Source: Candidatus Latescibacterota bacterium
GTDB lineage: Bacteria > Latescibacterota > UBA2968 > GCA-2709665
Direction: 5' to 3'
NCBI GenBank assembly: GCA_965219455.1
Contig: OZ244744.1
Coordinates: forward strand, 4,480,001 to 4,544,000
Length of the DNA: 64,000 nt
The notes under the pieces are model-generated. The model saw only the letters and a program-made list of their open reading frames with translations. It did no database searches and was not told the DNA's origin. The position numbers and the translations under genes were made by a program. Positions 6,966-56,606 of this stretch are shown here, in pieces (position 1 is the first letter of the stretch; each line of letters begins with the position of its first letter).

Positions 6966-8309
6966 ATGCTCGTGAATTATACACCGCATACGGATCGAGA
7001 TATCCGGAAAATGCTGGAGACGATCGGGGTCGATTCAGTAGAGGCATTGTTTGAACCGGTGCCGGAATCCCTTCGCCTGAATTCCCTGAATCTGCCCGCC
7101 GGCATCAGCGAGATGGAGGCGCTTGGGCTGGTTCAGGACCTTGGCCGGTCAGCGCGAGAGCAAACGCCTGCGCTGTCTTTCGTTGGCGGCGGCGCCTACG
7201 AGCACTTCACGCCCAGCGTCGTTGATGCAATGATTTCACGCAGCGAGTTCTATACGGCATATACACCGTATCAGGCGGAGGTGAGCCAGGGTACGCTGCG
7301 GGCAATTTTCGAGTTCCAGACCATGGTCTGCGAGTTGACCGGTATGGAGGTGGCCAACGCCTCCATGTACGACGGCGCGTCCGCCCTTGCGGAAGCGGTG
7401 TTGATGGCGGTGCGGATTAACGACGGTTCCCGCGTACTGCTGCCGCGCAGCCTGCACCCGTTCTACCGGCGTGTGGTGGAGACGTATGCGTGGGGAATCG
7501 GACTGGAATTGGTGGAAATTCCGTGGACGGATGCCGGAACGATCGACCTGGACCGGGTCGAGTCGGAGATGAATGACGACACTGCCGCGGTGGTCGTGCA
7601 GAATCCGAATTTTTTGGGCGTGCTGGAACCGCTGGACGCACTGGGAAGCCTTATACGGAATCACCGGGCGGCCTATGTCGCGGCGGTGAATCCGATTTCC
7701 CTGGGGGTGATCCGGCCCCCGGGAGACTTCGGAGCGGACATTGTGGTCGGCGACGGGCAGCCGCTGGGATTGCCGTTGTCCTACGGGGGTCCCTACGTGG
7801 GGATGTTCGCCACGTGCGAACAGCATATTCGACGAATGCCCGGGCGGGTGGTCGGGCAGGCCACCGATGCGGATGGAAGGCGGGGGTTCGTGATGACCCT
7901 GCAGACGCGCGAACAGCATATTCGTCGGGAACGGGCAACCTCGAATATCTGTACGAATCAGACGCTATGCGCGACGGCGGCGACCGTCTATCTCGCGTCG
8001 CTGGGGCCGGAAGGTCTGCGGGAAGTTGGCATGTTGAACTGGAACCGAAGCCACGATGCGGCGGCTGCGCTGCGCGAGATCGATGGGCTTTCTCTCAAGT
8101 TCTCCGGCGCGTCGTTCAACGAGTTCGTGGTTGAAACCACCCGGCCGGCGCAGGAAGCACTCGGCGCGTTACGAGGAAAAGGCATCGCCGGCGGTATCGA
8201 TCTGGGGCGTTTTTATCCCGAACTGGACCGGTGCGTTCTGACGTGTTTGACCGAAACGAAGACCGGAACGGACGTGACGCGTCTGGTTGATGCCTGGAGA
8301 GACGTGTAA
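6966..8309 (+). CDS. gcvPA: Glycine dehydrogenase (decarboxylating) subunit 1
   Basis: EFYTAYTPYQAEVSQG, NASMYDG and QTREQHIRRERATSNICTNQ. Confidence 0.97.
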   Translation: MLVNYTPHTDRDIRKMLETIGVDSVEALFEPVPESLRLNSLNLPAGISEMEALGLVQDLGRSAREQTPALSFVGGGAYEHFTPSVVDAMISRSEFYTAYTPYQAEVSQGTLRAIFEFQTMVCELTGMEVANASMYDGASALAEAVLMAVRINDGSRVLLPRSLHPFYRRVVETYAWGIGLELVEIPWTDAGTIDLDRVESEMNDDTAAVVVQNPNFLGVLEPLDALGSLIRNHRAAYVAAVNPISLGVIRPPGDFGADIVVGDGQPLGLPLSYGGPYVGMFATCEQHIRRMPGRVVGQATDADGRRGFVMTLQTREQHIRRERATSNICTNQTLCATAATVYLASLGPEGLREVGMLNWNRSHDAAAALREIDGLSLKFSGASFNEFVVETTRPAQEALGALRGKGIAGGIDLGRFYPELDRCVLTCLTETKTGTDVTRLVDAWRDV

Positions 8310-9760
8310 TGGATCGGGATCTGTTGATTTTTGAAAGGGGTGAAAGCGGGCGGCGTTGTACGACCTATCCGGATGCCGGCGCTCCGGTTGTGCCCATACC
8401 CGAAGCTATGTATCGGAATGACGCGCCTGCGTTGCCGGAAGTCAGCGAACTTGAACTGGTGCGCCATTACGTTAAGCTCTCGACCATGAACTTCAGTATC
8501 GATACCGCGTTTTACCCGCTGGGTTCGTGTACGATGAAGTACAATCCCAAAGTACACGAACGCGCCGCACGGCTACCTGATTTCGCGGGATTGCATCCCT
8601 TCGCGGATGCGTCGTCGTCCCAGGCGGCGTTACGTGTCTTGTGGGAAATGGATGAGATATTGAAAGCCGTAACCGGGATGGACGGTTTTACGTTTCAGCC
8701 GGCGGCCGGAGCACAGGGAGAATTCGTCGGGATCTCACTGATAGCGGCGTACCACCGTGAGAAACAAGATAGCAGGCAGATCGTGCTGATTCCGGATTCG
8801 GCCCACGGTACAAACCCCGCTACCGCGGCGATGTGCGGCTTTCGGGTGGAGACATTGAAGTCTACCGACCGAGGAACCGTGGATGTCGCGGATCTGAAAG
8901 CCAAGATGAACGACCGGGTCGCGGGATTGATGCTGACCAATCCCAATACTTTCGGCGTGTTCGAGGATGAGATCCTGGAAATCCAGCAGGTGGTCCACGA
9001 CGGCGGGGGGTTGCTCTATTACGATGGAGCGAATTTGAACGCATTCTTAGGACAATGCCGGCCTGGAGATATGGGTTTTGACGTTGTCCACATCAACTTG
9101 CACAAGACTTTCACCACCCCGCATGGGGGTGGCGGCCCCGGGTCCGGGCCGGTCGGCGTGAAGGAAGCGTTGCTGCCTTATTTGCCGGTCCCTGTCGTGG
9201 CGAAAGAAGGCGATCTCTTCCGGTTGGACTACGATCGCCCGCAGTCGATCGGAAAGGTCAGTACGTTCTACGGAAATTTCGGGATGGTGATTCGTGCCTA
9301 TGTATACGCCAGAATGCTGGGCGCGGAAGGGATGCGGCGCACAAGCGAGATGGCAGTCTTGAACGCGAATTATATCGCCAGCCGGCTGGACGGCTACTAT
9401 GACCGCCCGAAATCGGCTCAGCCCATGCACGAAATGGTGTTCTCGGCGTCGCGGCAGAAACGGGCCAACGGGGTGAGCGCTCTGGATATCGCCAAGAGAC
9501 TGATCGACTACGGACATCACCCGCCCACGATTTATTTTCCGTTGCCCAGGGTGGCGCCGGAGGCGATGTTGATCGAGCCGACGGAGACCGAGAGCCTGGA
9601 ACAGCTTGACGAGTTCATCGACGCTATGATCCGGATCGCCAGAGAAGCAAAAGAGGACGCCGACCTGTTGCGCAATGCGCCGCATCACACGACCGTGCGG
9701 CGGCTGGATGAAGCAACGGCCGCGCGGAAGCCCGTGCTGCGAGCGAACCGGGGCGCATAA
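8309..9760 (+). CDS. gcvPB: Glycine dehydrogenase (decarboxylating) subunit 2
   Basis: YPLGSCTMKYNP, SAHGTNPATA and PLP-lysine motif HINLHKTFTTPHGGGGPG; TAATG coupling to gcvPA. Confidence 0.97.
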   Translation: MDRDLLIFERGESGRRCTTYPDAGAPVVPIPEAMYRNDAPALPEVSELELVRHYVKLSTMNFSIDTAFYPLGSCTMKYNPKVHERAARLPDFAGLHPFADASSSQAALRVLWEMDEILKAVTGMDGFTFQPAAGAQGEFVGISLIAAYHREKQDSRQIVLIPDSAHGTNPATAAMCGFRVETLKSTDRGTVDVADLKAKMNDRVAGLMLTNPNTFGVFEDEILEIQQVVHDGGGLLYYDGANLNAFLGQCRPGDMGFDVVHINLHKTFTTPHGGGGPGSGPVGVKEALLPYLPVPVVAKEGDLFRLDYDRPQSIGKVSTFYGNFGMVIRAYVYARMLGAEGMRRTSEMAVLNANYIASRLDGYYDRPKSAQPMHEMVFSASRQKRANGVSALDIAKRLIDYGHHPPTIYFPLPRVAPEAMLIEPTETESLEQLDEFIDAMIRIAREAKEDADLLRNAPHHTTVRRLDEATAARKPVLRANRGA

Positions 9761-43802: not shown

Positions 43803-44537
43803 CTAGAACGTCCCCACGGGAATACCATATGCCTCTTCAACCCGCTGGGTGTCCACCATTTCGATGGCTTCCCACGGGCAGATATGCACACATTGGATGC
43901 ATCCGATGCAGTCTTCGAGCCGAACTTCACAAAACGTACCGATACCGTCCAACCCCGCGTCAGCCACGTCCACTTCTTCGATACAGTCTGTTGGACAGAC
44001 TTCGATGCAGGCGTTGCAACCGGTGCAATAGTCGGGGTTGACAATGGCAATAGACCGGGGCCGCTTCTTCTTGGCAGCCATGCCGGAGCGGGTTTCCAGC
44101 CAGAGGTGTTCGTGAAAATCGACGCGTTCTTTCTTCGAGACCCGCTCAGGACGGTAGATCTCTGACTTCGGCGCGAACTCCAGCGCGCCTTCGGCGTGGG
44201 CGTGGCTGAGGCGGTATCGGTCCGCGGTAACGAGTTGGTCGGGATCGTCGTCGTAGACGAAACTGACCAGCTCATAACGGATGCCCACGGTCCGGCCGGC
44301 CCGTCCGTTCAGTTTGAAATGGATGCCCGGCCTGAATTCGAGGATGGTAAGGCCAGTGGGCTCCTTTTCGGTCTCCACGGAAGCCGGTGCGGTTTCCAGT
44401 GCCGGGGCGGCTGCCTCGGGTGCGGATTCTGCGGCGTCGCCAGCGCCCTGTTTGGCTTTCCGCATGGCCTCGGCTTTGGCCTTCGCCCGCGCGACCCGGT
44501 CGGTGATGCCGTCAAACTGAGTAAGGTCGACGTTCAC
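43803..44537 (-). CDS. 2x[4Fe-4S] ferredoxin-domain protein with N-terminal extension
   Basis: CTGCNACIEVCP and CIGCIQCVHICP; GTG start after AGGAG. The ORF-track extension to 45056 runs through a MITE and is spurious. Confidence 0.88.
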   Translation of the reverse strand: MNVDLTQFDGITDRVARAKAKAEAMRKAKQGAGDAAESAPEAAAPALETAPASVETEKEPTGLTILEFRPGIHFKLNGRAGRTVGIRYELVSFVYDDDPDQLVTADRYRLSHAHAEGALEFAPKSEIYRPERVSKKERVDFHEHLWLETRSGMAAKKKRPRSIAIVNPDYCTGCNACIEVCPTDCIEEVDVADAGLDGIGTFCEVRLEDCIGCIQCVHICPWEAIEMVDTQRVEEAYGIPVGTF

Positions 44538-44595
44538 GGGAACGATATCTCCTGTTGAACGTAATCTGTGTCGGGGAATAGTGCCGTCCGAGCAT

Positions 44596-44699
44596 AAAAT
44601 AGGGTCTTTCTCAGGGTTTGTCAAGGATGAAGGGGCTGGGCCGGACAAACCTGGTCGCGGACCAATATCTTGACAGCGTATGCCGACTCTGTTTATATT
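44596..44699. promoter_or_regulatory. Divergent sigma-70 promoter pair
   Basis: Minus strand TTGACA-17-TATTTT (44624-44596); plus strand TTGACA-18-TATATT (44670-44699). Confidence 0.6.
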
Positions 44700-44728
44700 G
44701 GTCCGCGTGTTTTCGTCCGTCGACTCTA

Positions 44729-44890
44729 ACAGTCCGTTGAAAAAGTCGCTCTGCAGGCGAGGCCGAGCCATTGTGATCGAAGACAAGGCGCGCGACCGAG
44801 CCGAATCGGGGGATTCGGGGAGGGAGCGCAACGCAGTATTTCGGCCACAAGGGCCGGCCGCAGCCCGGATGGGCTTTTTCAACGGACTGC
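44729..44890. mobile_element. MITE-like element, family A, copy 2 (162 bp)
   Basis: Terminal inverted repeats CAGTCCGTTGAAAAAG / CTTTTTCAACGGACTG, near TAA on both sides; highly similar to 15195-15356. Confidence 0.8.
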
Positions 44891-44931
44891 TAAGGGTAAC
44901 GTTTGCCGTTGTTCGAAATAGAGGATGCCGA

Positions 44932-45840
44932 ATGGACCATCCGACTCCCGAAGAGGAACTCAGAAAAATCGCCGAAGATGCCACCGCGCCGGTTTTGGAG
45001 GCGGAAGTCTCCCGGGCGAGGCTGGTCTCCCAATTCGTCATTTTCCCGGTGGCCATTCTCCTCGTGGCGCTTGCAATTTACCTGGGGTTGGGGCTATTGA
45101 CGGCCGAGCGAAAAATGGCGGAGGATTATCTCAATACGATTCGCGTGGGCGGCATCAACAGCCGGTGGCAGGCGGCGTACGAACTGGCCGCAGTGCTCGA
45201 CCAGGAGCAGCGCGAGGGACGGATTGGCCGCAAGTTCGTCGGAGAGTTGATACGGGTGTTCGAGGCTTCCCGTTCGGACGATCCGCGTGTAAGGCGGTTT
45301 CTGGCCGCGGCAATGGGAAGGGTGCGCGATCCCGCGCTGGTCAGCGTTTTGATTTCCGCGTTGGATGATCCCGACGACGAGACCCGGATCAACGCGATGT
45401 TCTCGCTCAGGGCTCATGGAGACCCCGGCGCCGTTCCACATCTCGTCAGGATCGCGTCCAACGACGATGCCGGCCTGCGTAAGGCCGCGGTATACGCCCT
45501 GGGTAGTCTCAACGACCCGCGTGTGCAGCCCGCACTCGAACAGGCGCTGCACGACCGGGCGCCCGACGTTCGCTGGAACGCCGCCCTGCAATTGGCGGCA
45601 GTCGGCAATAACGCGGGCCTGGAGGTTCTGGGCGAGATGCTGAGTCCGGGGTACCTGGAAGGGTTCGATCGGATAAGCGGAGAGGGGCGGCGCGATATAC
45701 TGGTCGGGGCGATCAGGGCCGTAGGCATTCTCGACGCCAGGTCCCTGACCTCCACGCTGCAGGAACTGCGCGGACAGGATCCGGATATGCGGGTCCGGCA
45801 GGCGGCCATTGAAGTTCTGAATGAATGGGGGGAGAAATGA
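44932..45840 (+). CDS. Membrane-anchored HEAT/PBS-lyase repeat protein
   Basis: TM segment (FVIFPVAILLVALAIYLGLGLL), RWQAAYELA and repeated D..VR..AA.ALG units. Confidence 0.85.
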   Translation: MDHPTPEEELRKIAEDATAPVLEAEVSRARLVSQFVIFPVAILLVALAIYLGLGLLTAERKMAEDYLNTIRVGGINSRWQAAYELAAVLDQEQREGRIGRKFVGELIRVFEASRSDDPRVRRFLAAAMGRVRDPALVSVLISALDDPDDETRINAMFSLRAHGDPGAVPHLVRIASNDDAGLRKAAVYALGSLNDPRVQPALEQALHDRAPDVRWNAALQLAAVGNNAGLEVLGEMLSPGYLEGFDRISGEGRRDILVGAIRAVGILDARSLTSTLQELRGQDPDMRVRQAAIEVLNEWGEK

Positions 45841-45946
45841 GCGACTTGAATCCACGGAACTGCAGGGTCGAATCCGGCCCGTTCAGGTGTGCGCCGGGTC
45901 CCTCGTTCGTTCTGTGTGGAAGCCGCGAATCTACAGAAAATCCCGC

Positions 45947-45975
45947 TTGACAATCCGGGGTGGTTTCGATATATT
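45947..45975 (+). promoter_or_regulatory. sigma-70 promoter of the bc/oxidase operon
   Basis: TTGACA-17 nt-TATATT, followed by an AT-rich tract (46015-46045). Confidence 0.65.
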
Positions 45976-46098
45976 GGCCCGGTATCTTTAGCGCTGTAAG
46001 TGATTCAATTTCCGGTATTTTTATAACTTATATCATATATTATTTCGTCCTGACGGTTTTCGGCTTGAAAGCCGCTTGAGCGGTTTCTGGGGTGTTCC

Positions 46099-47049
46099 AT
46101 GTCGGAAGGCAATATCGATCTTTCGGAATTTGACGAGATTCCGGATCGGGTGGCCAGGGCGAAGGCCAAAGCGGAGGCGCTACGCAGGGCCAGAAAGGCC
46201 GCCGCGGGCGAAGCGTCCGCGGCAACGCCGGCCGCGGGGGCTTCCGCGAAGGTCCCGGAGAAACCGGGGGGGGATTCCGCCGCCACCGAAGTGGATCTTT
46301 CGTCGCTGAACGAGATCCAGGATCGCGTTGCCCGTGCAAAGGCCAAGGCCGAGTTGATGCGCAAGGCGCGTGGGGGTGGCGCAGCGGCGCCGGCCGGTGC
46401 GCCGGCGAAGAAGGCCGCTTCCACGGCAGCCCGGGCGGCTGCCGCTCGGGCGTTAACGCAAAAAAAGGACGTGCCGGAAGCGGAGCGCGTCATCGTCCAG
46501 ACCTCTCCGGCCCCGCCCGCAATCCGCCCTGGGCCCGAAAGAACGCAGGCGGTGGTGGAAGGCGGCATGACCACCCGGCGGGGGTTTTTTACCTGGCTGA
46601 CCCTGGCCTGGGCGTCGTTTGCGGTCGCGTCCGCGGCGGGGCTCCTCGGGTTTACGCGCTTTCTGTTTCCGAATGTCCTGTTTGAGCCGCCCCAGACTTT
46701 CAAAATCGGGTTTCCGGAAGATTACGACTTTGGTGTGGACGAACGCTGGAAGGACAAGTTCAGCGTCTGGGTGATCAAGACCACGCAGGATATGTTCGCG
46801 CTCATTTCGGTATGCACCCACCTGGGTTGTACGCCCAACTGGCTGGGCAACGAACAGAAATTCAAATGTCCCTGTCACGGCAGCGGTTTTTATATGACCG
46901 GCATCAACTTCGAGGGCCCGGCGCCGCGCCCGCTGGAAAGGGCGCGCATTGTGCTGGCCGAGGATGGCCAGGTGCTGGTCGACAAGACCCGAAAATTCCT
47001 GTACGAGAAGGGTCACTGGGACAACCCGGAATCCTTTTTGCGGATCTAA
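46099..47049 (+). CDS. Rieske [2Fe-2S] subunit of cytochrome bc complex with long N-terminal extension
   Basis: Twin-arginine motif TRRGFF plus TM helix; CTHLGC, CPCHGS and GPAPRPL. Confidence 0.95.
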   Translation: MSEGNIDLSEFDEIPDRVARAKAKAEALRRARKAAAGEASAATPAAGASAKVPEKPGGDSAATEVDLSSLNEIQDRVARAKAKAELMRKARGGGAAAPAGAPAKKAASTAARAAAARALTQKKDVPEAERVIVQTSPAPPAIRPGPERTQAVVEGGMTTRRGFFTWLTLAWASFAVASAAGLLGFTRFLFPNVLFEPPQTFKIGFPEDYDFGVDERWKDKFSVWVIKTTQDMFALISVCTHLGCTPNWLGNEQKFKCPCHGSGFYMTGINFEGPAPRPLERARIVLAEDGQVLVDKTRKFLYEKGHWDNPESFLRI

Positions 47050-47179: not shown

Positions 47180-47965
47180 ATGCCGAAGATTTCCGGCCTC
47201 CTGGACCGGACCAAACGCTCTCAAATCTGGAAGTCCATCTTCAGGCACGACGTGCCGAGAGACGAACGCGGCCGCGCACAGGTGGTGCTGACCAATGTAT
47301 TTCTGCATCTGCATCCGGTGCGGACCCCCAAATCGGGTATCCGGGTGCGCTACACGTGGTGTATGGGTGGGCTCACCTTTTTTATTTTTCTGATTGAGAC
47401 CATCACCGGCATTCTGCTCATGTTTTACTACCGGCCCACACTCGAATACGCCTACACCGACATCATCGACCTGGGCGAGCAGGTTCCGCTGGGTATCATG
47501 CGGGAGATTCACCGGTGGGGCGCCCACGCGATGATTATTACGGTCTGGCTGCACATGTTGCGCGTATTTATGACCGGTGCTTATAAACCGCCCCGCGAGT
47601 TCAACTGGGCGATCGGTGTCATTCTGCTTCTTTTAACGCTGTTGCTGAGCTTTACCGGGTATCTGTTGCCATGGGATCAGCTTGCCATCTGGGCCATCAC
47701 GGTGGGGTCGAATATGGCGCGGGCAACGCCTTTCCTCGGGCACGAGGGGCCGGGAGCGGCGTTCCTGATGCTTGGCGATATCAACCTGGTCCATGCCGGC
47801 AACGACGCCCGATTTGCGCTGTTGGGGGGCCGTTTTGTCGGGGAGGGCGCGCTGCTGAGATTCTATGTCCTGCATTGTCTGTTCATCCCGTTTGTGGCGG
47901 CTATATTAATGGCCGTTCACTTCTGGCGGGTCCGAAAGGACGGCGGGATCTCCGGACCGATGTAG
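47180..47965 (+). CDS. Cytochrome b6-like N-terminal subunit of a split cytochrome b
   Basis: WCMGG (heme ci Cys), [35 protein letters not shown] and [14 protein letters not shown]. Confidence 0.95.
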
Positions 47966-48010: not shown

Positions 48011-49087
48011 ATGGATGTTCTGAAAGGCTTTATCAACTGGCTGCTCACGCCTGAATATTTCATGCCGTTGTTTGCCATTCTCTTTTTCCTGGCTTTGCGG
48101 ACCCGCTGGGTCTGGACGGTCCGGTTCGGCCTCCCCGCCCTGATCGCCTCGATCGTATTCTTCGTTGTAAGTTTTCAGGATGAGAATTTTCGCATTATTG
48201 TGACCAAGGGCGACAATATCCCAATTGTCATGTTGTTGTTCCTGGTCGGTTTTTTTGTCTGGTACAGCCTGAAACAGGGGTACGACAACGACGAGCGTAT
48301 CGAACGCGGAGAAGGGCCGGTTGAGAAAGCCGAATTCAAAGAGAAGGTCCTCACCTGGCCCCATCTGGTCTACACGGAGTTGATCTGCCTGACCCTGGCC
48401 ACGGTCTTTCTGATTCTCTGGTCCGTGCTGATAAAAGCCCCCATCGAAGAGCCTGCCAACCCCGCAACAACTCCCAATCCGTCCAAGGCGCCCTGGTATT
48501 TCCTGGGCCTTCAGGAAATGCTGGTGTATTACGATCCATGGATCGCCGGTGTCGTTCTGCCCACTCTCGTCATTGTGGGTCTTATGGCTATTCCGTATAT
48601 CGATCGGAATTCCAAGGGACTCGGTTACTACACGTTCAAGGAACGCCGGTTCGCCATTACGGTGTTTCTATTCGGTTTTGTGGTGTTGTGGGTGATGCTG
48701 ATCACGATCGGTACGTTTCTGCGCGGCCCGAACTGGAACTTTTTCGGGCCGTACGAATTCTGGGACGTGCACAAACTGGTAGCACTGGTCAACGTCAATC
48801 TGTCGGAATATATCTACGTCCAATGGCTGGGCACGGGTTTGCCATCCTTCTGGTTGACGCGCGAAATATGGGGTTTCCTCCTTGTTATCCTGTATTTTCT
48901 GGTGCCCCCGCCTGTACTTGCGCAAACGGTGTTCAAGGAGTTCTACAAGACGATGGGATTCGTCCGCTATAGCGTGATGATCCTCTTCTTCCTCTGCATG
49001 GTCGCCCTCCCCATCAAGATGTTGCTTCGCTGGCTGTTCAACCTGAAATACATCGTTGCCATTCCGGAATATTTTTTCAATATCTGA
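48011..49087 (+). CDS. Cytochrome b subunit IV-like (C-terminal) protein with extra TM helices
   Basis: WPHLVYTE, EEPANPATTPNPSKAPWYFLGLQE (PEWY-equivalent), PYID and FLRGPNWNF. Confidence 0.9.
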   Translation: MDVLKGFINWLLTPEYFMPLFAILFFLALRTRWVWTVRFGLPALIASIVFFVVSFQDENFRIIVTKGDNIPIVMLLFLVGFFVWYSLKQGYDNDERIERGEGPVEKAEFKEKVLTWPHLVYTELICLTLATVFLILWSVLIKAPIEEPANPATTPNPSKAPWYFLGLQEMLVYYDPWIAGVVLPTLVIVGLMAIPYIDRNSKGLGYYTFKERRFAITVFLFGFVVLWVMLITIGTFLRGPNWNFFGPYEFWDVHKLVALVNVNLSEYIYVQWLGTGLPSFWLTREIWGFLLVILYFLVPPPVLAQTVFKEFYKTMGFVRYSVMILFFLCMVALPIKMLLRWLFNLKYIVAIPEYFFNI

Positions 49088-49201
49088 GGGTTCTTTCTTG
49101 TTTTTCGGCGCCGCTGCAACATGCTTTGGAATTTCTGAAGGAGTTGAAGGACGCGGCAAGTACGGTGCTTTGGGTGGATGCCGCCCCTCTGGAGCCGTTC
49201 G

Positions 49202-52200
49202 ATGAATGAGCAGAAGCGCTTCATAGACTTTGTCTACAATGTAGATAAATTGAACATGATTTTCGCCGTGTCCAGCGTGGTGCTGGTTATTGCCGTGCTC
49301 TGGATGGTCTGGGACGACTACGACCGTGAATGGAAGGGCTTTCAGAAGGAAGCGATGTCGCTGGAGGCCTACAAGACAGAGGCGGAAATCAAGCTGGCTC
49401 AGGAGAACACTGACCAGGACGCCCTGAACGCGATTGAAGACGAACTCACGGGAATTGAGGCCGCGATTCAGGCGCATCAGCAGCGATACGACGCGGCGAC
49501 GAGCGAGTTGAAGCGGCTAACGCAGGCGGAATGGTACGGGGCCGATCAGAGGCTCAAGTTCGAGAAAGCGCAGTACGACGTGGTGAAGTTTGAATATGAA
49601 GACGCGGCCAAAGCGGGGCATGAGGAAACTGCTACGAAGAAAAAGGCCGAAATGGAAGCCATGGAAGTCCGGATCTACGAGTTCCGGCTGGCCAGGGAGG
49701 CGGTGGAGGAAAAACAGGCTGCGCAGCAGAAGATCATCGATGCAGTGGCGGGACAGAGGCAGGCGTTAGAGTCCAGACGGCGTTCGTTGCGCAAGGATGA
49801 AGAAAACCTGAGGCGCAAGTTGACGGGACTTGTGCCGAGTTTCCCCAACGTGTTCCGAAATCTGCCGGTGGTCGACTTTATCGATCCGTCCATTAAGGTC
49901 CGGCAGGTCGTGCTGGCCGACCTCAGAAACGAGCTCAACTTTACCACGGTTCCCCGGGTGGACCGATGTACCACGTGTCATTTGAACGTGGACCGCCCGG
50001 GGTACGAGCTCGATCGGGAAACCGGCTGGTTTGAGGACGAGACACTAAAGACGTATATGGAAACGGTCTACGGGGACGAAGACGTCCGGCTGGGGCGCAC
50101 CAGTGTATTTTCGACACATCCGAGGCTGGACCTTTTCCTGAGTAGCGGCTCACCCCACCCGATCGATGAGTCGGGGTGCACAACCTGTCATCTCGGTCGC
50201 GACCGGGGCGTGACGTTCAAGAATACGGCCCATACCCCGGGCGACGACGTCGAGGCGGCCCGCTGGAAAAAGCTGTACGGATGGAAGAAAATGAAATACT
50301 GGGACCACCCCATGCTGTCCAGCCGCTACGTCGAGTCGACGTGCGCTCAGTGCCACACGGGCGTTGTGGACGTACCCCGGGCGGAAAATCTGAATCGCGG
50401 TATCCATCTCGTGCGCACGCTGGGTTGCCACGGCTGCCACAAAATCGCCAGGCATACGCTGCGGAATCTGCGCAGGGTCGGCCCGGATCTCCGCAAGGCG
50501 GCCGGTAAGCTGGATCGTGAATGGGCCGTTAAGTGGGTGCGGGATCCCAAGGGGTTTCGTCCTTCCACCAAGATGCCCAAGATTTTCGATCTGTCCAACG
50601 TGAGTGGGCCGGAGGATATCCAGCGCAATACGGCAGCGGTCAACGCTGTTGTGGCGTTTATTTTCGAGAAGTCCGAGCGTCCCGTATACCCCCCGCCTCC
50701 GGTGCAGGGCGACGCCGGTCGGGGCGAACGTCTCGTCGAAATGGTGGGATGCAAGGCCTGCCACGTGGTGGGTGCGGACGATCGGTTGGGCCAGGAATAC
50801 GGGCAGCGGAATTTCGGCCCCAACCTGAACGAAGTTGGCAGCAAACTGTCTGCGGGCTGGCTGTTCGCATGGCTGAAGGATCCCACGGCCTATTTCCCGG
50901 ATACCCGGATGCCGAATCTGCGGCTGACCGACCGGGAGGCGGCCGATATCACGGCCTATCTGCTCACCCGTCGGAATACGGCGTTTGAAGCCCGACAGGT
51001 GGCGCCGGCGGACCCACAGGTCCGCGACGATCTGGTGCTGAACTATCTGCGCAGCCGGTTGCCCGTGAAGGCCGCGAGGGAGCAACTGGCTCAGATGTCG
51101 AGTCATGAGCGCGACATCTGGCTGGGCGAGAAGATCATCTCCCGGCAGGGCTGTTTCGGATGCCACCTCATTCCGGGATTCGAAGATACCCAGCCGATCG
51201 GCACGGAACTGACCGAGGAAGGCAGCAAGGACGTGGACAAGCTGGATTTCGGTCTGCTGGCCAGGAAGGCGGGTTCCTCCTACGACAGCGATCCCGACGC
51301 CATACCCTATACGCGTCACGACTGGTTCTACAAAAAGCTCAAACAACCCCGCGTCTTCGATAAGGGCAAGGTGAGGCTGTTCGACGACAAGCTGCGTATG
51401 CCCCAGTTCGGTCTGAGCGATGAGGATGCGCACGCGGTGACGACGGCGCTGCTGAGCATGAACAGGAGCCAGGTGGGGGCCAACTCGATAAAACGCCTGG
51501 CGCCCGAGGAAGTCGATATCGAGAAGGGCCGCTGGCTGGTTTACGACAGAAATTGCAAAGGGTGCCACGTCGTCGAGAATCAGGGCGGGGCGATCCGCGA
51601 TCCACTGGTGAAGGCCTACGGGGCCGAGGACGTTTCCGCCTCCGACGCCGAGGGTTTCGTGCCGCCGGTCCTGAACGGCGAGGGCAGGAAAGTTCAGTCG
51701 GACTGGTTCTTCGCTTTCCTGAAGAACGTGGAGCCTATCCGTCCGTGGCTCGAGGCACGGATGCCCACGTTCGGATTCGAAGACCGGCAGGCCATCGATC
51801 TGGTCACTTATTTTTCCCGCCTCGACAAGGAGCAGTTTCCCTACGCGACGTTTGTGCATAAGCGTTTGAGTTCTAAGGAATTGAGTGGCGCGAAGAAGCT
51901 GTTCAGCGAGGACATTTACAACTGTTTCACCTGCCACCAGCAGGGCGATATCAAGCCCAAAGGCGACCCGGCAAGCTGGGCGCCCGACCTGAAGTTGGCG
52001 CGGGAGCGGCTGAAACCGGCGTGGATCCGGGACTGGTTGTGGGATCCGCAAAAGATTCAGCCGGGAACCAAAATGCCCACGTTTTTCGGTGACGAGATGA
52101 CCTACCTTCCGGTAGAAATGGCCGCCTATCTGAAGCTGCCCGAGGGGGTCAAGCCCGAGGATGGCCTGCTCGTCCTGCCAACCGACGTGGTCATTCAGGC

Positions 52201-52270
52201 GCTCACGGACTACATCGTCTACGGCTTGCACCAGGATGCCCGGCTGACAAGTGTTTCGTCACGGAAATAG
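49202..52270 (+). CDS. Membrane-anchored multiheme (8 CxxCH) cytochrome c with coiled-coil stalk
   Basis: CTTCH x2, CAQCH, CHGCH, CKACH, CFGCH, CKGCH and CFTCH; distal MP motifs; N-terminal TM helix then coiled coil. Confidence 0.92.
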   Translation: MNEQKRFIDFVYNVDKLNMIFAVSSVVLVIAVLWMVWDDYDREWKGFQKEAMSLEAYKTEAEIKLAQENTDQDALNAIEDELTGIEAAIQAHQQRYDAATSELKRLTQAEWYGADQRLKFEKAQYDVVKFEYEDAAKAGHEETATKKKAEMEAMEVRIYEFRLAREAVEEKQAAQQKIIDAVAGQRQALESRRRSLRKDEENLRRKLTGLVPSFPNVFRNLPVVDFIDPSIKVRQVVLADLRNELNFTTVPRVDRCTTCHLNVDRPGYELDRETGWFEDETLKTYMETVYGDEDVRLGRTSVFSTHPRLDLFLSSGSPHPIDESGCTTCHLGRDRGVTFKNTAHTPGDDVEAARWKKLYGWKKMKYWDHPMLSSRYVESTCAQCHTGVVDVPRAENLNRGIHLVRTLGCHGCHKIARHTLRNLRRVGPDLRKAAGKLDREWAVKWVRDPKGFRPSTKMPKIFDLSNVSGPEDIQRNTAAVNAVVAFIFEKSERPVYPPPPVQGDAGRGERLVEMVGCKACHVVGADDRLGQEYGQRNFGPNLNEVGSKLSAGWLFAWLKDPTAYFPDTRMPNLRLTDREAADITAYLLTRRNTAFEARQVAPADPQVRDDLVLNYLRSRLPVKAAREQLAQMSSHERDIWLGEKIISRQGCFGCHLIPGFEDTQPIGTELTEEGSKDVDKLDFGLLARKAGSSYDSDPDAIPYTRHDWFYKKLKQPRVFDKGKVRLFDDKLRMPQFGLSDEDAHAVTTALLSMNRSQVGANSIKRLAPEEVDIEKGRWLVYDRNCKGCHVVENQGGAIRDPLVKAYGAEDVSASDAEGFVPPVLNGEGRKVQSDWFFAFLKNVEPIRPWLEARMPTFGFEDRQAIDLVTYFSRLDKEQFPYATFVHKRLSSKELSGAKKLFSEDIYNCFTCHQQGDIKPKGDPASWAPDLKLARERLKPAWIRDWLWDPQKIQPGTKMPTFFGDEMTYLPVEMAAYLKLPEGVKPEDGLLVLPTDVVIQALTDYIVYGLHQDARLTSVSSRK

Positions 52271-53361: not shown

Positions 53362-54132
53362 ATGCAAGAAAAGGTGTACGGTTACTGGCTGCCAATTGAT
53401 ATCTCAACACACGGCGCAACCGTGGATTGGCTGATCAATTGGCTGCATGTCTTTATGTTGGCGCTGTTTCTGGGTTGGGGCGTGTTCTTTGTCTACTGCC
53501 TTGTCCGGTACCGGAGGAGAACAAACCCCGCGGCGACTTACGATCCCGTGAAGGGAAAACTGGCCAAATACGTGGAGTACGGCGTGATCGTCGTCGAGGC
53601 CGTGCTGCTTGTCGGACTCTCCATGCCGCTCTGGGCGGACTTCAAACACGCGTTTCCCGACGAATCCGACGCGCTGGTGGTGCGGGTGGTGCCCGAGCAG
53701 TTTGCATGGAATATCCACTATTCGGGGAAAGACGGAATATTCGGACGGTCGGCGCCGCAATTCGTGAGCGCCGATAATCTGCTTGGGCTGGATCCCGACG
53801 ATCCGAACGGCAACGACGATTTCAATGCCATCAACAACCTGCATATTGTGAAGGACAAGCCCGTCATTGCGCACCTCTCGTCGAAGGATGTCATTCACAG
53901 CTTCAAGATCCCGGTGATGCGATTGACGCAGGATGCGATTCCCGGGCAGGACATCAAGATCTGGTTCGAGGCGACCAGGACCGGTACGTTCGATATCGCG
54001 TGTGCCCAGCTGTGCGGTCTGGGGCACTATCGCATGCGCGGGCAATTGACGATCGAGTCGGAAGCGGTGTTCCAGGCCTGGTTCGATGAGCAGTCCGGCG
54101 CAGCGGATGAAGAAGACGAGTTTTCCTTTTAA
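53362..54132 (+). CDS. coxB: Cytochrome c oxidase subunit II (CuA)
   Basis: Two TM helices, QFAW, DVIHSF and CAQLCGLGHYRM. Confidence 0.95.
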   Translation: MQEKVYGYWLPIDISTHGATVDWLINWLHVFMLALFLGWGVFFVYCLVRYRRRTNPAATYDPVKGKLAKYVEYGVIVVEAVLLVGLSMPLWADFKHAFPDESDALVVRVVPEQFAWNIHYSGKDGIFGRSAPQFVSADNLLGLDPDDPNGNDDFNAINNLHIVKDKPVIAHLSSKDVIHSFKIPVMRLTQDAIPGQDIKIWFEATRTGTFDIACAQLCGLGHYRMRGQLTIESEAVFQAWFDEQSGAADEEDEFSF

Positions 54133-54144
54133 GGAGCCTGTTTT

Positions 54145-55941
54145 ATGGCTGAGCAAGCGCACGGTGATCACGGACACCATGAATTGACGTACTGGCGCAA
54201 GTACATTTTTTCCGTCGATCACAAAATTATCGGGATTCAATACGCGGTCACCGCCCTGTTTTTCCTGTTTTTCGGCTTCTGCCTGATGATGATGATGCGG
54301 TGGCAGTTGGCCTATCCCGGGCAGCCGATACCCTGGATCGGCAAGTTGTTCAGCGCGGTGAACATGCCGGAAGGCGTGATGGTGCCGGAGTTTTACAACC
54401 AGCTCGGGGCCATGCACGGAACCATCATGGTGTTCCTGGGCGTGGTTCCGCTGGCCGTGGGTGGATTCGGGAACTACGTGCTGCCCCTCCAGATCGGCGC
54501 GCCGGACATGGCGTTTCCGAAGATCAACATGGCGAGTTACTGGATATTTGTCGTGGGCGGCATCATTATGCTGGCCAGCTTCTTCGTTCCCGAGGGTGCG
54601 GCTCAGTCCGGCTGGACGTCCTATCCTCCGCTGGCCAACATCGCGCCAACGGGGCAGACCTGGTGGCTGTGGGGCATGGTGGCCCTGATTACGTCATCAT
54701 TACTGGGCTCGGTGAATTTTATCGTAACGACGGTGCAGATGAGGGCGGAGGGGCTGTCGTTCTTCCGGCTGCCGTTTTTTGTGTGGGCGCAGTTCGTGAC
54801 GGCGTTCCTGCTGCTGCTGGCGTTCCCGCCGCTGGAGGCCGCCGGCGTTATGCAGCTCATGGATCGGATCGGGGGTACCAGCTTCTTCATGCCGAGCGGC
54901 CTGGTCGTAACAGGGCAGGCGCTGGAAGTGAGCGGCGGCGGCAGTCCGCTGCTGTGGCAGCACCTGTTCTGGTTTCTTGCGCATCCGGAAGTCTACGTTC
55001 TGATTCTGCCGGCGATGGGCATCGTCGGCGAGATTGTGGCCAACAATACCCGCCGGCCGCTATGGGGGTATCGCACGCTGGTCTACTCGATTATCTTTGT
55101 CGGGTTCATGTCGTTTACCGTCTGGGCGCACCATATGTTCATGACGGGGATGGGGACCACAATCAGTACCTTCTTCCAGGCCACGACCATGATCATCTCC
55201 ATTCCGTCGGTGATTATCCTGACGGCGTTTGCGTTGAGCCTGTACGGCGCGTCCATCCGGTTTTCGGTGCCCATGCTGTTCTGCCTGGCATTCATTCCCA
55301 TGTTCGCCATCGGGGGGTTGACCGGGCTTCCGCTGGGTCTCACGGCCGCGGACCTGCATCTGCACGATACGTATTACGTGATCGGCCATTTCCACTATGT
55401 GGTGGCGCCGGGCACGATATTTGCGCTGTTTGCCGGGGTCTATCACTGGTTTCCCAAGGTGACCGGCCGCATGATGAACGAGGCATTGGGCAAGCTGCAT
55501 TTCTGGTTCAGCCTGATCTTTATGAACGGTGTATTCATGCCGATGTTGTTCGTGGGGATGGCCGGGGTTTCCAGGCGGCTTTACGACCAGACACAGTACG
55601 CGTACGGGGCGCAGGTGCAGGGGCTGACAACGATGAGTTCCTGGTCTGCATGGCTAATGGGGCTGGCGCAGATATTCTTCATCGTCAATTTCTTTATGAG
55701 TATAAGGAAGGGCCGGAAGGTTGAGTCGGACAATCCGTGGCAGGCCACCACCCTGGAGTGGGCAACGCCCACGCCGCCTCCGCACGGGAATTTCGCGGTT
55801 CCGCCTACGGTCTACCGCGGGCCGTACGAATATAGCGTGCCCGGGGCCTCGAGCGATTTCACGCCACAATACGCGTCTGAAAACGGGCAGGTGGCTCAAC
55901 CCGAGCCCGCGCCCACGCCCACGCCCGCGGACGACGACTAA
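54145..55941 (+). CDS. coxA: Cytochrome c oxidase subunit I (type A, HPEVY)
   Basis: DHKIIG, MHGTIM, GWTSYPPL, WFLAHPEVY, WAHHMF and HDTYYVIGHFHY. Confidence 0.97.
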   Translation: MAEQAHGDHGHHELTYWRKYIFSVDHKIIGIQYAVTALFFLFFGFCLMMMMRWQLAYPGQPIPWIGKLFSAVNMPEGVMVPEFYNQLGAMHGTIMVFLGVVPLAVGGFGNYVLPLQIGAPDMAFPKINMASYWIFVVGGIIMLASFFVPEGAAQSGWTSYPPLANIAPTGQTWWLWGMVALITSSLLGSVNFIVTTVQMRAEGLSFFRLPFFVWAQFVTAFLLLLAFPPLEAAGVMQLMDRIGGTSFFMPSGLVVTGQALEVSGGGSPLLWQHLFWFLAHPEVYVLILPAMGIVGEIVANNTRRPLWGYRTLVYSIIFVGFMSFTVWAHHMFMTGMGTTISTFFQATTMIISIPSVIILTAFALSLYGASIRFSVPMLFCLAFIPMFAIGGLTGLPLGLTAADLHLHDTYYVIGHFHYVVAPGTIFALFAGVYHWFPKVTGRMMNEALGKLHFWFSLIFMNGVFMPMLFVGMAGVSRRLYDQTQYAYGAQVQGLTTMSSWSAWLMGLAQIFFIVNFFMSIRKGRKVESDNPWQATTLEWATPTPPPHGNFAVPPTVYRGPYEYSVPGASSDFTPQYASENGQVAQPEPAPTPTPADDD

Positions 55942-56006
55942 CCCCGCTGTCGGCGAGGGCGGTGGAACCGAGGTGTCGGTCCGCGACAACGCAAAGGAGA
56001 TAAACG

Positions 56007-56606
56007 GTGTCCGTTGAAGAAATTCCCCACACGGTGGAGCCGCATCCGATAACCGGGGTATATAACGGGAAGTTCGGGATCTGGTTGTTCCTGGCGTCCG
56101 AGGTGATGCTGTTTGGTGCGCTGTTTTCAACGCTGGTCCTGCTCAGGGTCGGCGCGCCGTCCTGGCCGCACGGCTGGGAGTTGCTGAATGTCCCGCTGGC
56201 CACGCTGAATACGTTCGTGCTCATCGCCTCCAGTGTGACCATGGTGATGTCCTGGGCATCCTTGAAAATGGACAACTTCGGCAGGTTCAAGCTCTATCTG
56301 GGCCTGACGGTATTGCTGGCGTTTGTGTTCCTGGTTGTGAAGTACTTCGAATACACCCACAAATTTCATCTCGGCATCTATCCGTCCACCAACACGTTTT
56401 ACGCCACGTATTTTACGATGACCGGCCTGCATGGACTGCACGTGATCGGTGGCATCGTCGTAAATCTCTACCTGCTGTTCCCGGGCAGCAAGCTCTGGCA
56501 CACGGCGCCGGAGCAGTTTGCAAACCGGATCGAGTGCGCCGGACTTTACTGGCACTTTGTAGATCTGGTCTGGATCTTTTTGTTCCCGATTCTTTATCTG
56601 CTGTAA
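56007..56606 (+). CDS. coxC: Cytochrome c oxidase subunit III
   Basis: WLFLASEVMLF, TGLHGLHV and GLYWHFVDLVW. Confidence 0.95.
   Translation: MSVEEIPHTVEPHPITGVYNGKFGIWLFLASEVMLFGALFSTLVLLRVGAPSWPHGWELLNVPLATLNTFVLIASSVTMVMSWASLKMDNFGRFKLYLGLTVLLAFVFLVVKYFEYTHKFHLGIYPSTNTFYATYFTMTGLHGLHVIGGIVVNLYLLFPGSKLWHTAPEQFANRIECAGLYWHFVDLVWIFLFPILYLL

Follow-up and report, generated by a model that had tools for sequence, protein, structure and literature searches.

The window analysed here is a 64,000-nt stretch of the genome of a Candidatus Latescibacterota bacterium (contig OZ244744.1, positions 4,480,001 to 4,544,000). It contains a locus composed of a divergent gene pair and an operon that follows it, and two proteins of this locus carry copies of a conserved peptide motif of about 30 residues. 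The divergent pair encodes a ferredoxin-like subunit with one motif copy and a membrane-anchored HEAT-repeat protein. The second motif-bearing protein is the Rieske protein of the operon, which has two copies, so that the HEAT gene is sited between both motif-bearing genes. Aside from the Rieske protein, the operon encodes a cytochrome b, a subunit-IV-like protein, a multihaem cytochrome c, a 249-aa protein, and the COX2, COX1, and COX3 subunits of a haem-copper oxidase, beyond which lie CtaA, CtaB, and SCO1. The motif is a real, strongly selected peptide module, and it probably helps the ferredoxin-like module to work at the inner face of the membrane complex.

Each of the three copies is directly followed by an Ala/Pro-rich stretch. 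The 96-nt copies are 59-70% identical to one another in DNA, and a comparison of copy with copy over the 11 codons of the core DRVARAKAKAE gives no nonsynonymous and five to seven synonymous differences. As the core differs synonymously only and the DNA identity is no higher than this, the similarity has been kept at the peptide level and does not come from a recent DNA duplication. A hidden Markov model (HMM) of the three copies, run against the whole 5.84-Mb genome (84,364 stop-to-stop frames), found only these copies with E values of 1e-17 to 1e-19 each; the next match had an E value of 1.8. A chance origin of the similarity is excluded. An original prediction, made from the letters of this DNA, had placed one copy on the ferredoxin and two on the Rieske protein, each ahead of an Ala/Pro-rich stretch, and had taken the invariant core with its differing codons as a sign of selection on the peptide; the copies and the codon counts bear out both points. 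Among the orthologs (39 ferredoxin and 23 Rieske sequences), the motifs have a mean pairwise identity of 79-84%, against 84-85% in the Fe-S and Rieske domains and 21-26% in the linkers. By this measure, the motif is conserved as strongly as the cofactor domains.

The consensus of 16 copies from the window and related loci is xVDLSQFDxIxDRVARAKAKAEAMRKAKxGGG, in which 13 of the 32 columns are invariant. It is composed of a short acidic turn, [VI]DLSxFDxIxD, and a 17-residue Ala-rich helix, RVARAKAKAEAMRKAK, with a charge of +5/+6; the segment before this long helix has a charge of -2 to -4. In the AlphaFold2 (AF2) model of the ferredoxin copy, a short helix at residues 6-8 and a helix at residues 14-30, with a predicted local distance difference test score (pLDDT) of ~72, are succeeded by a disordered linker. 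The long helix is conserved on all faces and not along one seam; its hydrophobic moment is 0.02-0.10 and its mean hydrophobicity is -0.55 to -0.72 on the Eisenberg scale. With such a moment and no hydrophobic face, an amphipathic helix for membrane binding or microcompartment encapsulation was rejected. In all three architectures of the motif-bearing proteins, the first copy is located at the extreme N-terminus.

No Pfam or NCBIfam model covers the motif. Pfam scans of the tails alone, with E values allowed up to 10, gave sub-threshold noise (WASH_WAHD with 15 bits against a cut-off of 24, and DUF1707 with 12.6 against 27.6), and NCBIfam gave no model on the motif at E values up to 1. The locus is not mentioned in those papers on Latescibacter, Rieske protein and cytochrome b that were read, the peptide itself not being searchable as text, and among the papers listed for NuoI C-terminal extensions in connection with ferredoxin, none was relevant by title or abstract. 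Judged by the absence from Pfam and NCBIfam and by these limited literature searches, the motif is a new, unnamed module, as had been supposed when it was not recognised as a named domain.

We surveyed 168 Latescibacterota genomes for the motif. It is present in 30 of them with two or three copies each, all in one locus, and each of both genes has at least one copy; the copy number varies between loci as 1+1, 1+2, or 2+1. The SH3-like middle domain of the ferredoxin-like subunit occurs in the same 30 genomes, with one additional weak match elsewhere (E 0.004), and the Rieske C-terminal domains with an identity of 71% or more come from these 30 as well. Rieske orthologs with 55-65% identity in G048, G049, G050, and G071 come with neither motif nor middle domain. 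The 30 motif-bearing genomes are kin and belong to one clade of three related families. A profile of the 16 copies, searched against 1,835,955,588 representative proteins, gave 27 matches at E<=1e-3. The clear ones are ferredoxins, Rieske proteins, split-form proteins (described below), fragments, and four NuoI-type proteins (E 8e-8 to 7e-4), and the remaining two are an unplaced fragment and a spurious repeat protein. In a word-based search scored on Rieske residues 1-110, 50 of 50 matches were Rieske proteins, ferredoxins, or proteins with no Pfam family, and those of the last group that were read were split forms. None of 8000 scored candidates with a length of 554-2000 aa carried the motif, although this counts as weak evidence only. 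Its occurrence is strictly limited to one type of locus. The original prediction had expected an HMM of the three copies to lead to redox proteins in this genome and its relatives, and the motif to be shared by ferredoxin and Rieske orthologs. The searches found it confined to redox proteins of this locus type with no spread to non-redox ones, and on both orthologs in 30 of the 30 motif-bearing genomes. A likeness to the Ala/Lys repeats at the RnfC C-terminus, which had also been suggested, was not found, as no RnfC-like protein is among the 27 profile matches.

Table 1. Genes and sequence features of the motif-bearing locus (positions in the window; aa, amino acids; ORF, open reading frame; TM, transmembrane; pI, isoelectric point)
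Feature	Position	Strand	Basis or remark
Ferredoxin-like subunit gene, 244 aa	43803..44537	minus	ORF; GTG start 12 nt after GGAG
2x[4Fe-4S] domain, aa 164-244	43806..44048	minus	Pfam; charge -14, pI 4.1
Middle domain, aa 65-128, small SH3/Tudor-like beta-barrel	44154..44345	minus	pLDDT 85-91
Hypervariable acidic Ala/Pro/Glu linker, aa 34-64	44346..44438	minus	21% mean pairwise identity, pLDDT ~30, charge -6
Motif copy 1, ferredoxin aa 2-33	44439..44534	minus	three-copy HMM, copy alignment, AF2
Membrane-anchored HEAT-repeat protein, 302 aa	44932..45840	plus	Pfam HEAT_2; one TM segment at aa 35-53
Rieske protein, 316 aa, with 157-aa predicted cytoplasmic tail	46099..47049	plus	Pfam, ortholog alignment
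Motif copy 2, Rieske aa 5-36	46111..46206	plus	three-copy HMM, copy alignment
Motif copy 3, Rieske aa 64-95	46288..46383	plus	three-copy HMM, copy alignment
Twin-arginine motif TTRRGFF and TM anchor, Rieske aa 158-190	46570..46668	plus	invariant T158, T159, R160, R161, G162, F164; TM-like segment 167-185
b6-type cytochrome b, 261 aa	47180..47965	plus	Pfam Cytochrome_B
Enlarged subunit-IV-like protein, 358 aa, ~8 hydrophobic segments	48011..49087	plus	Pfam Cytochrom_B_C
Membrane-anchored cytochrome c, 1030 aa, eight CxxCH motifs	49178..52270	plus	Pfam, motif count
249-aa protein, one N-terminal hydrophobic segment	52540-53289	plus	sub-threshold CarboxypepD_reg match
COX2, COX1, and COX3 of haem-copper oxidase	53362..56606	plus	directly downstream in operon

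The 39-sequence alignment of the ferredoxin-like subunit reveals the order motif, linker, SH3-like middle domain, basic connector, and 2x[4Fe-4S] domain. The subunit has two CxxCxxCxxxCP motifs at residues 171 and 210, Pfam places Fer4 families at residues 156-229, and there is no TM-like or hydrophobic segment. The middle domain is modelled by AF2 as a small β-barrel plus one helix. With VIA-align, it is best matched by 7pik_A (Z 6.9, root mean square deviation 1.8, 63 aligned residues), followed by CarD, FeoA, and Tudor domains with Z of 5-6; these Z values, all below 8, are middling and point to the fold class only. The Foldseek matches of the barrel have E values of 3e-3 to 0.1, with TnsB and the KorB C-domain at the top. 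The middle domain has no Pfam match, and Protein Atlas gave no usable look-alike for ferredoxin residues 1-130. By sequence, the nearest solved relatives of the Fe-S domain are MvhB polyferredoxin (E 2.7e-9), PsaC chains (down to 4e-9), and FwdF, with E values of 2.7e-9 to 5e-9 across the three, and its PsaC matches in Foldseek have 36-41% identity over ~58 columns. The AF2 model of this domain is poor, with a pLDDT of 41-58. Cluster annotations for eight of the proteins read only '4Fe-4S binding protein' and 'ferredoxin family protein [bacterium]'.

In Rieske proteins inserted by twin-arginine translocation (Tat), the sequence before the twin-arginine motif and the TM helix stays cytoplasmic. 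By analogy, everything N-terminal of the twin-arginine motif in the window Rieske protein would stay in the cytoplasm, and the N-termini of both motif-bearing window proteins should be cytoplasmic. Outside the motifs, the Rieske tail is basic and Ala-rich as well. Residues 96-157 (46384-46569), between the second motif and the twin-arginine motif, contain two more conserved stretches with a mean identity of 68-75%: an Ala/Arg-rich, helix-like one at ~106-122, and VIVQTSPAPPAIRPGPER at 131-148. In one relative (G021:C5:95292-96259), the Rieske tail (a 135-aa frame with two motifs) and the Rieske domain (a 256-aa frame) are in different frames; a frameshift, or faulty assembly of the repetitive linker, may be the cause.

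The cytochrome b has cytochromes b6 as its best solved relatives. In the alignment with these, Cys61 falls on the Cys of the b6 'YCLGG' stretch, the covalent ligand of haem ci; a cytochrome of the haem-ci type had been part of the original prediction. The protein is split in b6 fashion, with a Cytochrome_B gene followed by a Cytochrom_B_C gene (Pfam). Cytochrome f is not in the operon; the gene after subunit IV encodes the eight-CxxCH protein instead. Judged by its genes, the complex is b6-type: its cytochrome b has the haem-ci Cys, subunit IV is enlarged, the cytochrome c has eight CxxCH motifs, and an aa3-type oxidase is encoded downstream. Residues 41-46 of the cytochrome b read FLHLHP, and His43 and His45 precede the first TM helix (gene at 47180-47965). 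In AlphaFold3 models of Kuenenia complexes, His43 (or His62) of each cytochrome b is the proposed ligand of an extra haem b on the cytoplasmic side, or n-side (PMC12954380). Window His43/His45 and Kuenenia His43/His62 form a candidate parallel.

This complex looks like a relative or new variant of the multihaem b6f-like complexes of anammox bacteria. The Rieske soluble domain is closest to Kustd1480 of Kuenenia stuttgartiensis (9rk3_A, E 4.6e-45). For the two b6f-like complexes of this organism (Kustd1480-1485 and Kuste4569-4574), the direct comparison concerns the Rieske protein, and the b6-type cytochrome b, the enlarged subunit IV, and the multihaem cytochrome c replacing cytochrome f are alike by description only. 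The anammox complexes are described as b6f-like; their subunit IV is enlarged, their cytochromes c are multihaem, and an NAD(P) oxidoreductase is placed on the n-side. In the models, the Fe-S clusters of this oxidoreductase lead to the cytochrome b part, and quinol-driven NAD(P)+ reduction by bifurcation is proposed for the complexes (PMC12954380). The n-side modules differ: the anammox complexes have a flavin NAD(P) oxidoreductase, whereas the window has the 244-aa SH3-like/2x[4Fe-4S] protein and no flavin domain. No FAD/NAD(P)-binding subunit is encoded by the 16 ORFs scanned between 43.8 and 63 kb, the remaining genome not having been searched for one. Unlike the anammox complexes, the window operon continues into an aa3-type oxidase. 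The profile search returned no matching protein longer than 418 aa except the spurious repeat protein, and hence the anammox subunits show no sign of the motif.

At L021 and L026, loci from two sister-family genomes, the ferredoxin gene is split. The first piece encodes two motif copies, a linker, the middle domain, and two terminal hydrophobic segments. Directly after it, the second piece encodes a 105-110-aa 2x[4Fe-4S] protein that is ~70% identical to the C-terminal part of the window subunit. This Fe-S protein carries neither motif nor membrane anchor, and the motif/SH3-like protein has no Fe-S motif. The neighbours of the split form are the same as in the window, from HEAT through the Rieske protein, here with a single motif, to b, IV, cytochrome c, and the 249-aa protein, and metagenomic split forms have one to three motif copies. 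The motif travels with the middle domain, not with the Fe-S domain. In addition, genome G079 has a second operon of Rieske, b, IV, and multihaem-c genes (L025:6156-11197), in which an 86-aa 2x[4Fe-4S] gene is located between subunit IV and cytochrome c; this paralogous operon has no motif and no SH3-like domain. Because of the gene fusion/fission and the internal ferredoxin gene of the paralogous operon, the ferredoxin is likely a subunit or dedicated partner of this complex type. Gene context gives good support to an association between the ferredoxin module and the n-side of a complex of the haem-ci type. As the motif carrier of the split form is already membrane-anchored and its Fe-S protein is without motif, the motif is not simply the anchor of the ferredoxin. 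The claim that the motif holds the ferredoxin at the n-side therefore stands in part: the association with the complex is borne out by fusion/fission and the paralogous operon, but the split form speaks against the motif as a simple tether.

The four NuoI-type matches, which are the weaker ones of the profile search, are NuoI-like 2x[4Fe-4S] proteins with long C-terminal tails. A metagenome scan for relatives, which come from marine samples, found 113, of which 80 were kept (L030-L109). The operon context rests on a single locus, L039 (gene 8001-9458), with the order nuoA-B-C-D-H-I-J followed by antiporter-like subunits and with no nuoEFG between nuoD and nuoH. The tails are composed of two or three repeats of a 60-aa module on Ala/Pro/Glu linkers. 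AF2 models the module as four helices with a pLDDT of 94, and Foldseek found no solved fold for it at E<=0.001; like the motif, the module is unnamed, and it has no Pfam model that we could find. In hhalign, the motif matches the first 28 columns of the module with a probability of 92% (E 6e-7), and the module matches the whole Rieske and ferredoxin alignments with probabilities of 82-83%. In the window genome, a module profile made without Latescibacterota sequences matches only the three motif copies, and weakly (E 2.5e-4, 0.03, and 0.07, for one genome). For the second half of the module (helices 3-4), hhalign found no match beyond the motif in HEAT, Rieske, or ferredoxin, the alignment ending at column 28-34. 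Where the module has helices 3-4, the window motif runs straight into the disordered linker.

By these profile comparisons, the motif is most likely a truncated relative of the NuoI-tail module, corresponding to its first half. Like the motif, the NuoI tails are predicted to have a short and then a long helix, they carry several copies on Ala/Pro/Glu-rich linkers, and they belong to the cytoplasmic 2x[4Fe-4S] subunit of a quinone-linked membrane complex. The NuoI module differs in that it is a complete 60-aa domain at the C-terminus of one subunit only, whereas the motif is N-terminal and on two subunits. The link hints that docking modules of this kind form a wider family, so far undescribed, and sit on electron-input subunits where a respiratory complex has no dedicated dehydrogenase module.

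We propose that the motif copies are docking elements, tethered and multivalent, which would all bind one partner at the Fe-S module on the cytoplasmic n-side and would not be the primary anchor of the ferredoxin. The favoured partner would be the acidic 2x[4Fe-4S] ferredoxin domain, either that of the locus's own subunit or, in the split form, the free 105-aa ferredoxin. Held by the arms, this domain would stay near the n-side face, where electrons could pass in one direction or the other between a low-potential Fe-S carrier and the quinone-reduction/haem-ci side. Taken jointly, a tethered docking element of the n-side Fe-S module that captures the acidic ferredoxin domain is a tentative proposal that could well be right. 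Identical ligands competing for one receptor fit better than mutual zipping because the copy number is variable, the helix is conserved on all faces, its charge is positive, and it has no hydrophobic seam. Among receptors, the acidic ferredoxin is favoured because it would unite the bc-type and NuoI-type contexts and would explain the untagged free Fe-S protein of the split form. The charges are complementary, +5/+6 for the motif helix against -14 for the Fe-S domain, and the variable copy number would fit avidity better than a fixed bundle. The same architecture, in which a short conserved module hangs on a hypervariable Ala/Pro linker and copies vary in number, is seen in tethered recognition modules such as the L7/L12 stalk and, in 2-oxoacid dehydrogenase E2, the peripheral-subunit-binding and lipoyl domains, whose Ala/Pro linkers are flexible; the sequences are unrelated, and the likeness is an analogy only.

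Several points weigh against this proposal. Co-occurrence of the motif on both genes may reflect a single gain, plus losses, in one clade. The similarity to NuoI tails, as aligned, spans only 28-34 Ala/Lys-rich columns. Capture of the ferredoxin is a putative interaction, as is binding of the motif to any of the partners considered, and the Fe-S domain, whose AF2 model is poor, is a candidate receptor only. Conservation of the helix on all faces speaks for a specific enclosing site rather than simple electrostatics. Furthermore, the fused ferredoxin bears a motif copy of its own, which would be superfluous if the arms merely catch ferredoxin. Finally, the Rieske protein of G048 (L022:9470-9856, minus strand) has no motif, and its cytoplasmic tail displays two copies of a different module of ~45 aa on Ala/Pro linkers. 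Hence the Rieske tail may be a general display platform, and its ligand need not be ferredoxin. Pfam gave only sub-threshold Ribosomal_S3_C and Rho_N matches on this alternative module. Its presence on another G048 protein was considered and rejected, both matches being within the Rieske gene.

In one form of the original prediction, the copies bind each other, so that the ferredoxin arm would pair with the Rieske arms and hold the signal-less ferredoxin on the complex. We regard this as unlikely, though a serious contender. The same consensus occurs on both proteins in every one of the 30 genomes, and the fused ferredoxin, having no TM segment, needs some attachment. The motif corresponds to half of a four-helix module, and two halves could in principle pack. 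In Ala-rich coiled coils, Ala faces permit close helix packing, which the Ala-rich faces of the motif might allow as well. However, a helix with a charge of +5/+6 and a hydrophobic moment of 0.02-0.10 is poor for pairing, and the alternation of two or three copies per locus would be poorly tolerated by a defined bundle. Conservation lies on all faces of the helix instead of one seam. In the split form, moreover, the motif sits on a protein that already has a membrane anchor and is missing from the free Fe-S protein that would have to be held.

Alternatively, the receptor could be a fixed subunit, and the motif would then serve in assembly or structure. Candidates are the HEAT protein, with its repeat domain or its acidic N-terminal tail, and cytochrome b/subunit IV, with their cytoplasmic face. 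Flanked by the motif-bearing genes, the HEAT gene keeps its synteny in the 14 loci that were aligned with the window gene; 22 of 23 HEAT matches come from motif-bearing loci. HEAT solenoids often enclose helical peptides. Before its TM helix, the protein has a conserved acidic stretch of the EELRxIAEDATAP type with a charge of -4 (residues 1-33, 44932-45030). This stretch is present in 15 orthologs from motif-bearing genomes, weakly so in L027, and absent from the single ortholog of a motif-less genome (L022; n=1). However, the HEAT gene adjoins the Rieske operon in fused, split, and motif-less loci alike, and it persists in G048, where there is no motif. The topology is ambiguous as well: by the positive-inside rule, the lysine/arginine counts on both TM flanks are similar in the 15 orthologs, and the repeat domain may be periplasmic. 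Comparison by hhalign shows no relation between HEAT and the NuoI module, and in the one NuoI locus that was read there is no HEAT neighbour. Co-folding of Rieske motif residues 1-36 with HEAT 58-302, HEAT 1-32, and ferredoxin 62-128 gave scores of 0.00 and 0.00 without controls and is no evidence either way. Altogether, we consider a fixed-subunit receptor quite unlikely. In G048, the HEAT gene is located downstream of cytochrome c, not upstream.

A role in biogenesis is very unlikely, in our view. Here the motif would be an N-terminal tag, read in the cytoplasm by a chaperone or Fe-S delivery factor that coordinates the insertion of cofactors and also holds the Rieske protein before Tat export. 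Established precedents from other systems are chaperones that bind the signal peptides of Tat substrates and peptide tags by which Fe-S delivery is recruited; both window carriers are Fe-S proteins, and the first copy is always at the extreme N-terminus in the three architectures. However, the split form reverses the expected pattern, as its motif carrier has no Fe-S motif and the adjacent Fe-S protein is untagged. The extra internal copies and the C-terminal modules of NuoI misfit an N-terminal signal, and family scans of the locus ORFs revealed no evident gene for a dedicated chaperone. Least probable of all is a low-specificity polycation that binds anionic lipids, nucleic acid, or another polyanion, or serves as a charged spacer: the Ala/Lys/Arg-rich composition, the charge of +5/+6, and the likewise basic, Ala-rich remainder of the Rieske tail would suit it, but the near-invariance of 13 of 32 columns including the acidic DLSxFDxI exceeds what a charge function needs, membrane binding would lack a hydrophobic face, and the motif is restricted to one locus type.

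PetP of b6f, PsaE beside PsaC, and NdhS of NDH-1 are SH3-fold auxiliaries at Fe-S or ferredoxin sites in photosynthetic complexes, and the window likewise has a small barrel beside a PsaC-like domain on the predicted cytoplasmic side of a b6-type complex. PetP sits on the n-side face of b6f, no more than 16 A from haem cn, where the ferredoxin (Fd)-FNR site is proposed to lie (PMC9342900). The likeness to the three proteins is at the level of fold class only, and they have no N-terminal motif. PetP, PsaE, and NdhS are not among the 50 matches shown by VIA-align or Foldseek for the middle domain, which does not exclude a relation.

The locus may be a natural ferredoxin-coupled b6-type complex in which a PsaC-like domain with its SH3-like partner works at the haem-ci face, and the motif may found a 'ferredoxin-capture' family shared with NDH-1 that lacks the NADH-oxidising module. 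We hold this wider picture to be doubtful, if conceivable. If it were true, the complex would exchange electrons directly between ferredoxin and the quinone/haem-ci site. In the forward direction it would act as a ferredoxin:quinone reductase; in reverse, quinol-driven ferredoxin reduction would be paid for by the octahaem-c/aa3 branch. Such a complex would be a model, hard-wired in the genes, for the much debated passage of electrons from ferredoxin to b6f in cyclic electron flow. Direct electron entry from ferredoxin to haem ci in b6-type complexes has been a matter of argument in photosynthesis for decades, and a similar n-side Fe-S route has been proposed, not shown, for the anammox complexes (PMC12954380, PMC9342900). 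The locus points to a bacterial b6-type complex with its own 2x[4Fe-4S] subunit, tied to the membrane complex by gene fusion/fission. It offers concrete handles in a 30-aa peptide displayed from two subunits and in a small subunit set, all inferences being genomic and drawn from uncultured bacteria.

The 249-aa protein is encoded between the octahaem cytochrome c and COX2. It is kept at this position in L021, L026, and L027 with 56-60% identity, and a relative of ~30% identity adjoins the cytochrome c in L024.

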